DNA of 64,000 bases from sequence record NC_054921.1. One strand, written 5' to 3'. Under the pieces are notes generated by a model. It searched no databases. It worked only from the letters and a program-made list of their open reading frames with translations, and was not told where the DNA came from. Source of the DNA: Escherichia phage vB_EcoM_IME537. Both the position numbers and the translations under genes were made by a program. Every line of letters begins with the position of its first letter. Within the stretch, counting starts at the first letter, position 1. Of this stretch, positions 24,725 to 64,000 are shown piece after piece.

Positions 24725-25249
24725 GAATGCATCGTATACGTCTTTTTCTGTTTTAGATTGGGCATAATTCAATGCATCAGCGATTTGCCATTTTTCTGCA
24801 TCCTCAATATGTTTTGCATAGGTGCGTTTAACATAAGGAGAAAGTACTTTATCTACATTCGCAAAAGTCGTTCCGCCATATTGATGAGAAGCAACCTGCG
24901 CAGTAATTTGTGCCATAATTGCAGTAGCAACGCCAATTGATTTAGGAGTTTCAATCTGCGCATTACCAAGCTTAAATCCGTTCTCAAGCATTCCTTTTAA
25001 ATCTACTAAACAACAATTAGTAAATGGAAGAGCAGGGGAATAATCAATATCGTGGAAATGGATAATTCCGCTTTCATGCGCTTTCATAATAAAAGACGGG
25101 ACCATATTTTTGGCAATGTGTTTAGACACAATACCAGCCATAAGGTCCCGTTGAGTTGGAAAAACACGAGAATCTTTATTAGCATTCTCGTTTAAAAGGT
25201 CTTTATTAGTTTTATGAATCAATCCTTCAATTTCTTTTTCAATTGTCAT
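24725..25249 (-). CDS. nrdD: anaerobic ribonucleotide reductase NrdD, exon 1 (N-terminal part; 3' boundary approximate)
   Basis: N-terminal NrdD region (MTIEKEIEGLIHKTNKDLL...); the ORF-track stop at 24704 lies inside the intron. Confidence 0.8.
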
Positions 25250-25719
25250 TTTAAACTCTTTCTAAGCTGCTTCTTAAATGAAGCTATTAATTGTGTTTTG
25301 GTGTCAGATTCATTATATTCAAATCCTCTTTGAAGCATCTCAGCTATCATTTCCTCTTTTCCTAAACGAGAAAATTCCTTTGATTTATCTCCAACAAAGT
25401 TAGGGTGAATATTATTTTGGGTGTAATCGGATTTTAAATAAGTAAGTAAATTTTCTAACCATTCAAGATAATCAACGCCTTGTCCCTTTAAGCCAGAACG
25501 ATTAAATTTGTGCTTCATTTGACCTTCCGCAGCATTGCAGAGATTACAGAGCAATCCACGTACCTTTCCTGCTTTTGGTCCATTTAATTCATGGTCATGG
25601 TCAAGGTGATTAGCTTGAACATCAGGATTTAGTTCTCGTTGGCAAATTAAGCATTTACCGTTTTGTGCATTATAAAATTTTTGTTTTTCTTCTTTGTATA
25701 ATTTGCCAGTCAATAACAT
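25246..25719 (-). CDS. 49: endonuclease VII (Holliday junction resolvase) gp49
   Basis: 157 aa, Zn-binding CxxC...CNLCN; near-identical to T4 endo VII from memory. Confidence 0.9.
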   Translation of the reverse strand: MLLTGKLYKEEKQKFYNAQNGKCLICQRELNPDVQANHLDHDHELNGPKAGKVRGLLCNLCNAAEGQMKHKFNRSGLKGQGVDYLEWLENLLTYLKSDYTQNNIHPNFVGDKSKEFSRLGKEEMIAEMLQRGFEYNESDTKTQLIASFKKQLRKSLK

Positions 25720-44076: not shown

Positions 44077-44254
44077 CTAAACGAATAGGTTCATGAATTC
44101 CATATCCTTGAACAGAAATTTCTGTCGTAGGATAAATTCCATCAATATCGCCCATATTCCACGCTTCATTAAATTGCTGTTCGCCTGAATTACTAAACCA
44201 CTCGGCGAAAGCATTTAGCACATCTTCAGAACCTTCAATAATTATCTTTGCCAT
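44033..44254 (-). CDS. hypothetical small acidic protein
   Basis: 73 aa ORF. Confidence 0.4.
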   Translation of the reverse strand: MAKIIIEGSEDVLNAFAEWFSNSGEQQFNEAWNMGDIDGIYPTTEISVQGYGIHEPIRLVEYDLCTGEEVKYD

Positions 44255-44616
44255 TACAAACTCTCAGTAAAGGTACGAGCAATAACGTCGCGTTGCTGTT
44301 CCGGAGTCAGAGAGTTAAAGCGAACTGCGTATCCGGATACACGGATGGTCAGCTGCGGATATTTTTCCGGATGCTTAACTGCATCTTCCAGAGTTTCACG
44401 ACGCAGAACGTTTACGTTCAGGTGTTGACCACCCTCAATTTTAACTGTAGGCTGTGTTTCAATTTCAATTTCACGGGCATGCAAACCATAGAAAATTTCT
44501 GGGTCTACAAAAGAGTCCTCTTTAAAGGTTTTAGAGACAATAATTCGTGCTTGAATACCATCTTCAAAATAAATAGTACCTTTATGTGTGCCTTCAAGAA
44601 TTTGATATGCTTTCAT
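44254..44616 (-). CDS. autonomous glycyl-radical cofactor (GrcA/YfiD-like)
   Basis: 120 aa; C-terminal glycyl-radical signature RVSGYAVRF and a C-terminal about 60 aa that match my recollection of E. coli GrcA; local GC content visibly higher than flanking phage DNA. Confidence 0.7.
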
Positions 44617-44623
44617 ATAAACC

Positions 44624-45004
44624 TCAATTAGAAAATAAATTTATCCAAGATTGTTCTTTAATTAAAAATGGCTCAGAATCATATGCCATTAAACTCTGTG
44701 TGATTAGTCCTTTAAAAGGCCCATCAATAAATTCCATGGTAAAGTATGGAATTTTATTCATTAATCTCGCATTAGGAGCAGTACATAAAACTCTGCATCC
44801 TTTGAATACGCCTTTTTGCAATTTGTATTGCTTAGGATAAAATTCGCTTAAAATGTTATTTTTTGCCAAAATTTCAAAATGATTCACCAATTTATTTTTA
44901 ATAGTTTTTGGTGAAAAATAAAGATATTCGAAAAGCTGAGTGTCTGTCATCATTGCATTCCGATTACGAAAAACTGTGGACGAGTAATACCACCAATGCA
45001 GCAT
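44624..45004 (-). CDS. hypothetical protein
   Basis: 126 aa ORF. Confidence 0.4.
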
Positions 45005-45540
45005 TTACTATTGCAGCAGTGTTGCACAGTTTCAATATGAATATCGTAAATTTTATCCATATCAGGAGATTTAACAGGCTCATCGATTATATACAAAATT
45101 CGAGAAAGCGATAAACCTCTGAACTTGCTACCTCTATTACCAACAAAACTACGGACAGAATCAGTAAATAAACGGAATCGAATATCATCGCTAGAATAAC
45201 GAGAAAATTCTTTTTTAATGCGGCCCGCAGAAATTTTAGCGTAAGCTGAAGTATTAGAAAGAACAATAACTGTTCCACCATCATACAACCAATTAGCGGC
45301 AAAATTAGTTACTGCAGTTGATTTACCAGATTGTCTGCCACCATCTAAACGAAGTGTACAATATTCTTTAAATAAATGCGACGAATCAGGTACATAAAAT
45401 CCACTATTACAAATTTCTTCTACTCTAGCATCAGAATGGTGTGTAAAAGCATTCATCAGGGATAGATAAGGACCAGTTAAAAATGTTCTCATTTTATTCT
45501 CTCTAAATTTGGGCCATTCCATGGCGCATGAATTGTCCAT
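44950..45540 (-). CDS. P-loop NTPase-like hypothetical protein
   Basis: 196 aa; Walker A GGRQSGKST, Walker B-like LYIIDEP. Confidence 0.45.
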   Translation of the reverse strand: MDNSCAMEWPKFRENKMRTFLTGPYLSLMNAFTHHSDARVEEICNSGFYVPDSSHLFKEYCTLRLDGGRQSGKSTAVTNFAANWLYDGGTVIVLSNTSAYAKISAGRIKKEFSRYSSDDIRFRLFTDSVRSFVGNRGSKFRGLSLSRILYIIDEPVKSPDMDKIYDIHIETVQHCCNSKCCIGGITRPQFFVIGMQ

Positions 45541-45633
45541 TTCTGTATTTACCCATTACCGCACTTGGGCTCGACCTTATTACAGGTTGGCGGGAATCCC
45601 TCACAGAATCATGAGGTCCAGGTTGTTCCCATG

Positions 45634-46107
45634 TTATTTGAACGATTTAACGTACTGAATAGAACCTTTACTATTCACGAAAGCGATTTTACCATTTTTA
45701 TTATACATGGTAGCAGTACGCTGATAACCATAAGTTTGTTTACCAGATTGATAACCAACTAATGCGAAATTATCTTCACCCATTTTATTCTGTTTAGCGC
45801 GAATACGTTCATGTCCATGCGCCATAAGAACCTTAGCATCACCAGTTGCAATGGATCGACGAGTTTTTTCATCTTCAACTGTATTAACAAAATCATCAAA
45901 TGAATCAAATTTAGCATGAGATTTATTATACAGTTTTCCATCTACTGCATAATTATATCCCTGTACATCCATCTCAACTTCTGTACCATCATCTAATACA
46001 GCAGTAATTTTCTGTCCTTTTTTAAATTTCAAAAGATCAGTAAAAGATTCAGCAATAATTTGAGAATTAATAGCTGCTTCAGTAATAAATTCTTGATATG
46101 TTTTCAT
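45634..46107 (-). CDS. internal-protein-like head protein with capsid-targeting leader (ipIII/ipII locus)
   Basis: 157 aa; N-terminal MKTYQEFITEAA matches the T4 internal-protein capsid targeting sequence; located next to e. Confidence 0.55.
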   Translation of the reverse strand: MKTYQEFITEAAINSQIIAESFTDLLKFKKGQKITAVLDDGTEVEMDVQGYNYAVDGKLYNKSHAKFDSFDDFVNTVEDEKTRRSIATGDAKVLMAHGHERIRAKQNKMGEDNFALVGYQSGKQTYGYQRTATMYNKNGKIAFVNSKGSIQYVKSFK

Positions 46108-46147
46108 ATGTTTCCTTTAAATGTAAATATTTTAATTAGTAACTGTG

Positions 46148-46181
46148 AATATACTATCACAGTTCTAGGAGAAAGTAAACA
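46148..46181 (-). promoter_or_regulatory. T4-type early promoter
   Basis: Minus strand GTTTACtttctcctagaactgtgaTAGTAT. Confidence 0.45.
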
Positions 46182-46184
46182 ACT

Positions 46185-46715
<531 letters not shown>

Positions 46716-47171
46716 TTAAAAGAGGTTGTTCATTATTCGGTAAAGTGAAGGACCCATCACATATTGCCACTGAGTACGAGGAATAAGAGCAAAAGCGTCC
46801 ATCTCTGGAATCATAACGCCATCTTTATTTTCAAAATAAGACTCGCAATGGCAATTTCTAAACATCTCATGCTCTACTGGAATCGTATAATAAAATAACT
46901 GTAAGTCTTTATTACTAGAATATTTAAATACACCTAGGTCTTCTAGAAGGTCTGGATTATAATTGCTAAAACCAGTCTCTTCTAAACATTCTCTTCGTGC
47001 TGCATCTAGTACGCTTAAATCAGAATTTTCTACGCGGCCCTTTGGGATATCCCAGCGATGTGCCATCATTCCAGGCTTACGAGAACCAGTAACCCGTCCC
47101 ATGAATAAATCTTTATCTTCGGTCATAAAGATAATACCAGCTGATAGTGTTTTCATTTTAATTTCCTGCAT
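46716..47171 (-). CDS. nudE: Nudix hydrolase NudE (e.1)
   Basis: 151 aa; Nudix box GRVENSDLSVLDAARRECLEETG. Confidence 0.8.
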   Translation of the reverse strand: MQEIKMKTLSAGIIFMTEDKDLFMGRVTGSRKPGMMAHRWDIPKGRVENSDLSVLDAARRECLEETGFSNYNPDLLEDLGVFKYSSNKDLQLFYYTIPVEHEMFRNCHCESYFENKDGVMIPEMDAFALIPRTQWQYVMGPSLYRIMNNLF

Positions 47172-54286: not shown

Positions 54287-54320
54287 GTAATAGTATCACT
54301 ACCCTATCTAAAAGTAAACT
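54287..54320 (-). promoter_or_regulatory. T4-type early promoter cassette (family B)
   Basis: Minus strand GTTTACttttagatagggtagtgaTACTAT. Confidence 0.5.
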
Positions 54321-54553
54321 TATTTTTTACGAAAAATTGATTTATTTTCTGCTGCCCATTTTTCAATAACTGCAGCAGGACCAGTAACAACAATTTTATC
54401 ACCGTAATCTTCTGCGGCGAGTTGACCGAAATTATCTAATGCATCACGAAGAACTCCATGAGGCATTTCACCCATTTTATCTTTCTTACCAGTGTAAATA
54501 AACTCAACTTTTACATCAGCCGCTTCATTGATAAATTCTTTGAAAGTTTTCAT
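54320..54553 (-). CDS. internal protein (ipI-locus, capsid-targeting leader MKTFKEFINEA)
   Basis: About 77 aa from MKTFKEFINEAADVK; the track start (54619) reads through the promoter cassette. Confidence 0.5.
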   Translation of the reverse strand: MKTFKEFINEAADVKVEFIYTGKKDKMGEMPHGVLRDALDNFGQLAAEDYGDKIVVTGPAAVIEKWAAENKSIFRKK

Positions 54554-54584
54554 TTTGATTTCCATTTGGTTTTGTTTTGATAGG

Positions 54585-54618
54585 GTAATAGTATCACAAC
54601 TAAAACTCCATGTAAACA
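54585..54618 (-). promoter_or_regulatory. T4-type early promoter cassette (family B)
   Basis: Minus strand GTTTACatggagttttagttgtgaTACTAT. Confidence 0.5.
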
Positions 54619-54629
54619 ACTTTATGAAA

Positions 54630-54887
54630 TTATTTCAAATCTTCTAATCGTTTCTTCATCTTAGAACCATTTTTAGCAATTTCTCCTGCATCGGAGCATA
54701 ATGCTAAAAGTGCTTTAACTTTAGTTTGGTCTCCTTTAAAAGATGAAGGATCGACTGCAGCAGCAAGTTCTTTAATACGAGAGAAAAGACGCTCAGCTTC
54801 AGCTAAAGCCATTCCAAGCTTTACTTCCATACCGTGAGAAGATTCAGTGATAGTAGTTTTTGTAGCAAACTCTTTGAAAGTTTTCAT
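54630..54887 (-). CDS. internal protein (ipI-locus, capsid-targeting leader MKTFKEFATK)
   Basis: 85 aa; N-terminal MKTFKEFA leader. Confidence 0.5.
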   Translation of the reverse strand: MKTFKEFATKTTITESSHGMEVKLGMALAEAERLFSRIKELAAAVDPSSFKGDQTKVKALLALCSDAGEIAKNGSKMKKRLEDLK

Positions 54888-54959: not shown

Positions 54960-55656
<697 letters not shown>

Positions 55657-61524: not shown

Positions 61525-63507
61525 ATGGCAAATACCCCTGTAAATTATCAATTAACAAGAACAACAAATGCTATTCCCGAGATATTCGTCGGGGGTACAT
61601 TTGCTGAAATAAAACAAAACCTCATTGAATGGCTTAATGGCCAAAATGAATTTTTGGATTATGATTTTGAAGGCTCAAGATTAAACGTTCTGTGTGACCT
61701 TTTAGCTTATAATACATTATACATTCAGCAGTTTGGTAATGCTGCCGTATATGAAAGCTTTATGCGTACTGCTAACTTACGTAGTTCAGTAGTTCAAGCG
61801 GCGCAAGATAATGGATATTTACCTACTTCAAAATCAGCTGCTCAAACTGAAATTATGCTAACTTGTACAGACGCATTGAATAGAAATTACATTACTATTC
61901 CTCGTGGTACTCGCTTTTTAGCATATGCAAAAGATACTTCTGTTAATCCTTATAACTTTGTCTCTACCGAAGATGTTATTGCTATTCGTGATAAAAATAA
62001 CCAGTATTTTCCACGTTTAAAATTAGCCCAGGGACGTATAGTAAGAACTGAAATCATTTATGATAAATTAACACCTATTATCATTTATGACAAAAATATA
62101 GATAGAAACCAAGTTAAACTATACGTTGATGGAGCAGAATGGATTAACTGGACAAGAAAGTCAATGGTTCATGCTGGTTCTACATCAACAATTTACTACA
62201 TGCGTGAAACTATTGATGGAAATACTGAATTTTATTTTGGTGAAGGTGAGATTTCTGTTAACGCGGCAGAAGGAGCATTGACCGCTAATTATATTGGAGG
62301 TCTTAAACCTACCCAGAACTCTACGATTGTTATTGAGTACATCAGTACTAACGGTGCAGATGCGAATGGTGCAGTCGGATTTTCATACGCAGATACATTA
62401 ACAAATATAACTGTCATCAATATTAACGAAAATCCAAATGATGACCCAGATTTTGTTGGGGCAGATGGCGGCGGCGATCCAGAAGATATTGAGCGTATTC
62501 GCGAATTGGGTACTATTAAACGCGAAACCCAGCAACGCTGCGTAACTGCAACCGACTATGATACATTCGTCTCAGAAAGATTCGGTTCTATTATTCAAGC
62601 GGTTCAGACTTTCACTGATTCTACTAAACCTGGTTATGCATTTATTGCTGCTAAACCTAAATCAGGACTATATTTAACTACTGTACAACGTGAAGATATT
62701 AAAAATTATCTAAAAGATTATAATTTAGCTCCTATTACACCATCAATTATTTCTCCTAATTATCTTTTTGTTAAGACTAATTTAAAAGTCACATATGCTT
62801 TAAATAAGCTGCAAGAATCAGAACAGTGGCTAGAAGGTCAAATAATTGATAAAATTGATCGTTATTATACCGAAGACGTAGAAATTTTTAATTCATCTTT
62901 CGCTAAATCTAAGATGTTGACATATGTAGATGATGCAGATCATTCTATCATTGGCTCATCCGCGACAATTCAAATGGTACGTGAAGTACAAAACTTCTAT
63001 AAAACGCCTGAAGCGGGTATTAAATACAATAATCAAATAAAAGATCGTTCTATGAAATCTAATACGTTTTCATTTAATTCTGGACGAAAAGTTGTAAATC
63101 CTGATACTGGTTTAGAAGAAAATGTATTATATGACGTTCGTATAGTATCAACAGACCGAGATTCTAAAGGAATTGGTAAAGTTATTATTGGTCCATTTGC
63201 TTCGGGTGATGTTACAGAAAATGAAAACATTCAGCCATATACAGGCAATGATTTTAATAAATTAGCAAGTTCCGATGGACGTGACAAATACTATGTTATC
63301 GGTGAAATAAATTATCCAGCTGACATGATTTATTGGAATATCGCTAAAATTAATTTAACATCCGATAAATTTGAGGTTCAGACTATTGAGCTATATTCTG
63401 ATCCAATAGACGATGTTATTTTCACGCGCGATGGTTCACTGATTGTATTTGAAAATGATTTACGTCCACAATACTTAACTATCGATTTGGAGCCTATATC
63501 ACAATGA
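61525..63507 (+). CDS. 6: baseplate wedge protein gp6
   Basis: 660 aa, same size and position as T4 gp6. Confidence 0.9.
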   Translation: MANTPVNYQLTRTTNAIPEIFVGGTFAEIKQNLIEWLNGQNEFLDYDFEGSRLNVLCDLLAYNTLYIQQFGNAAVYESFMRTANLRSSVVQAAQDNGYLPTSKSAAQTEIMLTCTDALNRNYITIPRGTRFLAYAKDTSVNPYNFVSTEDVIAIRDKNNQYFPRLKLAQGRIVRTEIIYDKLTPIIIYDKNIDRNQVKLYVDGAEWINWTRKSMVHAGSTSTIYYMRETIDGNTEFYFGEGEISVNAAEGALTANYIGGLKPTQNSTIVIEYISTNGADANGAVGFSYADTLTNITVININENPNDDPDFVGADGGGDPEDIERIRELGTIKRETQQRCVTATDYDTFVSERFGSIIQAVQTFTDSTKPGYAFIAAKPKSGLYLTTVQREDIKNYLKDYNLAPITPSIISPNYLFVKTNLKVTYALNKLQESEQWLEGQIIDKIDRYYTEDVEIFNSSFAKSKMLTYVDDADHSIIGSSATIQMVREVQNFYKTPEAGIKYNNQIKDRSMKSNTFSFNSGRKVVNPDTGLEENVLYDVRIVSTDRDSKGIGKVIIGPFASGDVTENENIQPYTGNDFNKLASSDGRDKYYVIGEINYPADMIYWNIAKINLTSDKFEVQTIELYSDPIDDVIFTRDGSLIVFENDLRPQYLTIDLEPISQ

Positions 63508-64000
63508 CAGTAAAAGCACCTTCAGTCACTAGTCTCAGAATTTCCAAGTTATCCGCAAATCAGGTGCAAGTACGCTGGGATGACGTTGGTGCTAATTTCT
63601 ACTATTTTGTAGAAATCGCTGAGACAAAAACAGACTCGGGGGAAAATCTCCCGAGTAATCAATACAGATGGATTAACTTAGGATATACTGCAAATAACAG
63701 CTTCTTTTTTGATGATGCCGACCCATTGACATCATACATTATTAGAGTAGCCACAGCTGCGCAAGATTTTGAGCAGTCTGATTGGATTTATACCGAAGAG
63801 TTTGAAACTTTTGCTACAAATGCTTATACATTTCAAAACATGATTGAAATGCAATTAGCCAATAAATTCATTCAGGAAAAATTTACTCTTAATAATTCTG
63901 ATTATGTTAATTTTAACAATGACACTATAATGGCTGCGTTGATGAATGAATCATTTCAGTTCAGCCCATCATATGTTGACGTTTCATCAATAAGCAATTT
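63504..64000 (+). CDS. 7: baseplate wedge protein gp7 (5' part; continues beyond window)
   Basis: ATG at 63504 overlapping the gp6 stop; open frame to the window end (MTVKAPSVTSLRISKL...). Confidence 0.75.
   Translation, partial: MTVKAPSVTSLRISKLSANQVQVRWDDVGANFYYFVEIAETKTDSGENLPSNQYRWINLGYTANNSFFFDDADPLTSYIIRVATAAQDFEQSDWIYTEEFETFATNAYTFQNMIEMQLANKFIQEKFTLNNSDYVNFNNDTIMAALMNESFQFSPSYVDVSSISN

Follow-up and report, generated by a model that had tools for sequence, protein, structure and literature searches.

The internal head proteins (IPs) of phage T4 and its relatives are the closest described systems for the locus analysed here. A ten-residue leader alone directs proteins into the T4 prohead core and is then removed by gp21, and each T4 IP remains in the head in hundreds of copies that are injected along with the DNA (PMC9026906; PMC3012670). 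IPI* inhibits GmrSD (PMC3012670), IPIII is needed for infection of ECOR17 and works leaderless from the host cytoplasm (PMC9391042), and the leader-bearing Bas37_0260, encoded at the other IP locus, inhibits McrBC (bioRxiv 10.1101/2025.11.20.689424). More than 30 IP variants have been described together with PeSL-like elements at two IP loci (PMC2839356, Arbiol et al. 2010).

In T4, the e-proximal IP locus has the order vs.8-denV-ipII-ipIII-e. Variability of this locus was reportedly described by Repoila and co-workers in 1994. DenV is endonuclease V, a pyrimidine-dimer DNA glycosylase, and T2 is more sensitive to UV than T4 because it is without the v (denV) function. The classical work on T2 and T4 UV sensitivity is said to be that of Streisinger in 1956 and Harm in 1963.

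We analysed the corresponding interval in a 64-kb stretch of phage DNA (the window, meaning the whole stretch at its full length). The interval is very probably a T2-type allele of the T-even e-proximal IP locus, a known hyperplastic cassette site, and holds ip4 only. The window is a Tequatrovirus (T4-like coliphage) segment. Its positions 44900-46700 share 99.9% identity with Escherichia phage vB_vPM_PD112, and matches to this region were obtained in 802 phage records. All genes around the ip4 locus are on the minus strand. The layout is as follows:

44254-44616, minus strand: vs.6/GrcA
44624-45004, minus strand: vs.7
44950-45540, minus strand: vs.8, encoding a P-loop protein, the left conserved flank (82% identity to T4 Vs.8; phrog_1488)
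45503-45604, minus strand: 33-codon GTG frame (MRDSRQPVIRSSPSAVMGKYRNGQFM...), a vestige of an N-terminal vs.8 extension that matches T4 Vs.8 residues 1-31
45605-45633, minus strand: short spacer 3' of the ip4 stop codon, left border of the variable cassette
45634-46107, minus strand: ip4 (ipIV), encoding a 157-aa internal head protein precursor (Pfam, PHROG, T2/K3 identity)
46048-46077, minus strand: ip4 codons 11-20, AAINSQIIAE, with a putative second I-x-E site (motif scan)
46078-46107, minus strand: ip4 codons 1-10, MKTYQEFITE, the capsid-targeting sequence (comparison with the T4 IPII/IPIII leader, motif scan)
46108-46184, minus strand: e-ip4 intergenic control element (sequence, fold, homologous copies)
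46185-46679, minus strand: e, T4-type lysozyme, the right conserved flank (Pfam Phage_lysozyme; annotation in homologous records)
46716-47171, minus strand: nudE

Elsewhere in the window, the identity to PD112 is lower: it is just 96% at 63400-64000, compared with 99.9% around ip4, and bases 1-600 had no match among the PD112 pieces compared. This comparison indicates that the source phage is a mosaic relative of PD112 and distinct from PD112 itself.

Between 45540 and 46185, a single credible ORF was found (45634-46107, minus strand, 157 aa, N-terminus MKTYQEFITEAA); the remaining frames are short overlapping ORFs without support. The original prediction had described about 650 bp upstream of e that contain only one ORF. 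The single frame stands, but the left end of this interval, some 65-100 nt, has to be assigned to the vs.8 homologue at 45503-45604. This G+C-rich segment is the homologue of codons 1-25 of T4 vs.8 but has a GTG start, and compared with T4 it has lost 8 nt, which puts a TAG in frame in the vs.8 N-terminal region. The idea that 45541-45633 could be a small RNA or the remnant of a mobile element was rejected, as this stretch represents vs.8 N-terminal coding sequence that has been disrupted; the G+C-rich sequence gave no match in Rfam at E <=1, and no terminator was found there either. Within the vs.8 start region (45492-45604, minus strand), two ATG codons, at 45540 and 45492, are possible restart sites of the main frame. 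The 8-nt deletion is common to T2, MLF4 and SA20RB, which differ by a further 1-nt indel, and most of vs.8 in T2 is annotated as just a 110-aa remnant.

A search of the complete 64-kb window by tblastn, using T4 DenV and MLF4 DenV (78% identical to the T4 protein) as queries, did not reveal a denV gene. The same queries recovered the T4 and MLF4 loci, which served as positive controls, with E values of 1e-73 to 1e-94. The sole window match to T4 DenV, which is sub-threshold (25261-25407, E 2e-4, 21/49 identities or 43%, DenV residues 56-101), is in frame with the gene of gp49, endonuclease VII (25246-25719, minus strand), and involves 49 residues at the C-terminus of this protein. We rejected it as a hidden denV because it lies inside a complete gp49 gene, so the predicted absence of denV from the window held. 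The gp49 match was weaker with MLF4 DenV (E 0.054), and T2 gp49 was not reported at E <=0.1. Local similarity between EndoVII and EndoV has been reported previously.

The same picture was obtained for T2 and PD112. In T2, no DenV match was found by tblastn at E <=0.1 in bases 1-50000 and 55000-163825, which make up about 97% of the genome. In PD112, the closest relative, none was found at E <=0.01 in 1-90000 and 150000-168084, which is the part that the window does not cover. In T4, MLF4 and Bas37, DenV is encoded at the variable e-proximal locus; it is absent here and in T2. Without DenV, the phage would be devoid of a pyrimidine-dimer glycosylase of its own and should be T2-like in its UV sensitivity, unlike T4. 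The greater UV sensitivity that this predicts is of practical interest for light-exposed phage preparations.

The 157-aa protein is Ip4/IpIV. It matches Pfam DUF7412 (PF24183) over its full length (E 5.7e-96, 319.4 bits at a cutoff of 27), with residues 1-157 aligning to profile positions 1-158, and phrog_3155, 'internal virion protein', likewise over the full length (E 6e-102). The T2 genome (LC348380) carries a 474-bp gene annotated as ipIV at the equivalent position, and its product (BBC14742) is identical to the window protein at 157/157 residues. The SA20RB orthologue is annotated as 'Ip4 internal head protein', and Ip4 of phage K3 (UniProt Q38388) shares 99% identity and is the sole structural neighbour in BFVD (TM 0.96). 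In length, leader and e-adjoining position, Ip4/IpIV of T2 and K3 are the same as the window protein. The gene order in T2 is vs.7-(vs.8 remnant)-ipIV-e without denV, and its e-ipIV spacer differs only slightly from that of the window, which has a gap of 16 nt and an insertion of 6 nt when compared with T2. Protein identity, gene order and the DenV-free T2 sequence bear out the T2-like genotype that had been proposed. In T2 LC348380, a 972-bp 'nudE' CDS (L004 8002-8973) covers both e and nudE and overlaps a separate e CDS; it looks like an annotation artefact.

Ip4 is encoded in 469 phage records (tblastn), at >=99% identity in 289 and at >=95% in 305 of them, while another 160 records show 60-80% identity. 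The records come from phages of Escherichia, Shigella, Klebsiella, Salmonella, Yersinia, Citrobacter and Serratia. The family is narrow: clustering at 90% identity gives 14-16 clusters among 5.8 billion proteins, none of them below 61% identity. Seven matches came from a profile search against 1.84 billion representatives, which added three relatives at 34-36% identity; these keep the length and the motifs of Ip4 and have a leader-like N-terminus, MNF(E/K)(Q/D)FLNES. One of the three is encoded on a T4-like contig from a metagenome, in the syntenic gene 1/57B ... vs/rI region. No credible homologue outside DUF7412 was detected in the 5.8-billion-protein search, the 1.84-billion profile search, the PDB profile search or NCBIfam, the latter two giving nothing above noise. 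The protein is therefore already named (Ip4/IpIV, DUF7412) and present in hundreds of sequenced phages, so that its detection here is a rediscovery. Earlier publications have also dealt with the variability of the locus, the recombination modules beside it and the role presumed for the protein. Likewise, the genotype itself adds nothing new, being the allele of T2 and of more than 100 other sequenced Tequatroviruses. Ip4 is, however, among the most widespread T-even IPs.

Of the T4 proteins of the same locus, IPIII aligns to Ip4 over the first 13 residues only, which belong to the leader, and the alignment of IPII (33% identity over 79 aa, E 2e-4) is leader-driven. As the similarity is confined to the leader, these alignments indicate that Ip4 is an orthologue of neither IPII nor IPIII. 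The proposed replacement of ipII and ipIII by a single leader-bearing protein is in agreement with this, and a close relationship of the 157-aa ORF to IPIII, which would have spoken against it, was not observed. T4 IPII and IPIII share with Ip4 the locus, the module of promoter, stem-loop and translation-initiation region, a near-identical leader and a similarly basic mature protein. The differences are that T4 has two genes where only one is present here, that no similarity to Ip4 extends past the leader, and that a host requirement, on ECOR17, is on record for IPIII only.

The Ip4 leader MKTYQEFITE has nine of ten residues in common with the IPII/IPIII leader MKTYQEFIAE, with T9 in place of A9. 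It is thus a leader of about ten residues of the (I/L)-x-E-ended MKTYQEFIxE kind that characterizes leader-bearing IPs, and its gene, located between vs.8 and e, is at one of the two IP positions, beside e or beside 57B. In a motif scan, the leader ends in I8-T9-E10, an I-x-E motif for the gp21 prohead protease. A second I-x-E motif, I18-A19-E20, is located in a disordered linker in front of the folded domain; pLDDT is below 50 at residues 10-18, and E20 is invariant among the close homologues. The mature protein has a pI of 9.1-9.3 and 17 Lys, comparable to IPII and IPIII. By analogy with the T4 IPs, Ip4 would join the prohead scaffold core via its leader and be cut by gp21 after Glu10, possibly again after Glu20. 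It would then be a basic head protein (pI ~9.2, 15-16 kDa) that is present in many copies and injected together with the DNA.

The region between e and ip4 contains a T4-type early promoter, with GTTTAC at 46180-46175, a spacing of N15 and TG-n-TAGTAT (TGaTAGTAT) at 46159-46151. It overlaps a stem-loop with the arms 46164-46157 and 46148-46141 (AACTGTGA/TCACAGTT; -12.2 kcal/mol as RNA), and 3' of the stem-loop follows the conserved ip translation-initiation region AAAATATTTACATTTAAAGGAAACAT. Homologous copies of promoter and stem-loop are found upstream of T4 ipIII, T4 ipII, T4 denV, T2 ipIV and MLF4 denV, and the SA20RB annotation places an early promoter and a terminator at the corresponding site. 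An early promoter and stem-loop in front of a cassette gene, repeated at the neighbouring genes, is the PeSL-like arrangement, and it is predicted here from the sequence. In the PeSL cassettes (Arbiol et al. 2010; Comeau et al. 2014), such an element before each cassette gene supplies the homology for shuffling, as it would here. In the published PeSLs, the promoters are sigma-70-like and the stems G/C-rich, in contrast to the T4-early-type promoters and AT-rich stems of the IP-locus elements, which the authors call analogues, not homologues, of PeSLs (PMC2839356).

The variable segment lies between the leader-coding sequence on the right and the vs.8 5' region on the left. On the right side, homology to T4 continues past e and the intergenic region for 11-12 codons into the gene, where it ends. 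On the left side, it starts again with the base that follows the stop codon of the last gene, which is ip4 here and denV in T4, at GGGAACAACCTGG. This border architecture is the one reported by Arbiol et al. (2010) and fits the published model of cassette shuffling, in which case alleles would be swapped by homologous recombination within the conserved flanks.

At least four arrangements between vs.8 and e are known: denV-ipII-ipIII in T4; ip4-denV in MLF4 and numerous further phages, in which denV is the gene closer to e; ip4 alone in T2, PD112, SA20RB and the window; and denV alone in Bas37. In the latter phage, the order is vs.8-denV-e at 135666-137322 without an IP gene, and both vs.8 and denV are non-essential by transposon sequencing (bioRxiv 10.1101/2025.11.20.689424, supplement). 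By junction-specific megablast, which gives approximate numbers, 159 records contain the ip4-denV junction, and in 274 records e comes after ip4, whether or not denV lies between them. Set against these 274 records, or against the 305 with Ip4 at >=95% identity, the 159 junction records leave approximately 115-146 with a denV-less ip4 allele, which is therefore common.

The MLF4 type also suggests another origin of the denV-less state, namely that denV was recently deleted in an ancestor with the order ip4-denV-e, instead of an exchange of the whole cassette. The flanks of the MLF4 type are 95-97% identical, the difference being a denV block of about 420 bp between ip4 and e, and the 159 junction records document that the presumed ancestral arrangement exists. 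In addition, the window and the denV 3' end of MLF4 have TTTAAATGTAAATATTTT in common. We nevertheless consider a deletion doubtful: TTTAAATGTAAATATTTT is a generic ip upstream element that also precedes T4 ipII, where no denV comes before it, and the e-ip4 spacer of the window resembles the e-ipIII spacer of T4 and the e-ipIV spacer of T2. The 18-nt identity with the MLF4 denV 3' end was accordingly rejected as a deletion scar, because the same string precedes T4 ipII. An exchange of cassettes between conserved flanks is the reading that we tentatively prefer. In ip4-denV phages, the last denV codons (..KNIYI*) overlap the conserved ip upstream element (MLF4, L002 4208-4230), which is why the C-terminus of DenV in these phages differs from that of T4 DenV (..KAIYA*). 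This divergent C-terminus looks like a product of recombination into the ip upstream element.

For the structure of Ip4, AlphaFold predictions with close homologues only reached a pLDDT of 50 and Foldseek was uninformative, but after addition of the three distant homologues the value increased to 83.8. The resulting model (mean pLDDT 83.8, pTM 0.78, low confidence for the first ~20 residues) shows a compact alpha/beta domain with small beta-sheets, a helical insert and a small beta-barrel of the SH3/Sm/Tudor/L19 kind. No informative structural relative was retrieved, with BFVD returning Ip4 itself only, and the protein has no obvious catalytic motif. Family-wide conservation is seen at G50, K58, N61-K62, N107-K108, Q120, G127-Y128 and T131; these residues suggest a binding surface more than an active site.

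Functional precedent comes from T4 IPI* and Bas37_0260, which are leader-bearing, injected and non-essential products of a swappable IP locus. Their locus is the one adjacent to 57B, and their sequences are unrelated to Ip4. With three other IPs being anti-defence factors, Ip4 is a sensible candidate for one as well, and an injected anti-defence role, as put forward in the original prediction, is plausible. Judging from the T4 IPs, its most likely job would be to neutralise a first-response host defence. Our more specific proposal, which we put forward tentatively and rate somewhat short of an even chance, is that Ip4 may be an injected inhibitor of a specific first-response defence, for example a modification-dependent nuclease, that the choice between ip4, ipII/ipIII and no IP may be a host-range determinant in Tequatrovirus, and that the beta-barrel may represent a new anti-defence fold. 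As Bas37 is viable without an IP at this locus, any role of Ip4 is dispensable or conditional. HIDEN-SEQ data are uninformative as a test of Ip4 essentiality, since Bas37 has no ip gene at the locus.

That the ORF is fortuitous or decaying and not a functional gene has next to no probability and is already refuted by the conservation data: 289 records encode it at >=99% and 160 more at 60-80% identity, the homologues at 34-36% identity keep length, leader and motifs, the AlphaFold model is confident, and ip4 has its own promoter and ribosome-binding region. The main rival to an anti-defence function is a mainly structural or packaging role, in which Ip4 would be a basic, lysine-rich protein for core assembly or for neutralising the charge of the DNA, with no specific host target. 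Such a role has been proposed for T4 IPIII, whose mutants assemble heads more slowly and give a burst of about 40% of normal (PMC9026906), and IP lysines touch DNA phosphates (PMC3012670). The pI of 9.1-9.3 and the 17 Lys of the mature protein, like those of IPII and IPIII, would suit this role, as would the modelled barrel of the SH3/Sm/Tudor/L19 kind, a fold frequent in nucleic-acid binders. On the other hand, the surface motifs GYNY..GKLYNKSHAKF and NKPGEDNFAL are conserved beyond what charge neutralisation needs, and IPIII acts leaderless in the cytoplasm (PMC9391042). Moreover, a locus that is swapped among unrelated proteins, or is empty as in Bas37, fits conditional, host-specific functions better. 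We regard a mainly structural role as rather improbable; a role against host defence would be the likelier one.

A second IP locus is present in the window at 54320-54887 (minus strand), beside 57B (54960-55415), and contains two leader-bearing genes. One encodes Ip5 (85 aa, 99% identity to T2 Ip5) and the other a 77-aa protein (MKTFKEFINEAA..., phrog_8111) that has only the leader in common with T2 Ip7. IPI, the GmrSD inhibitor, is absent from this locus. On a related contig, the 57B homologue carries the label Acb1 in a Pfam note.
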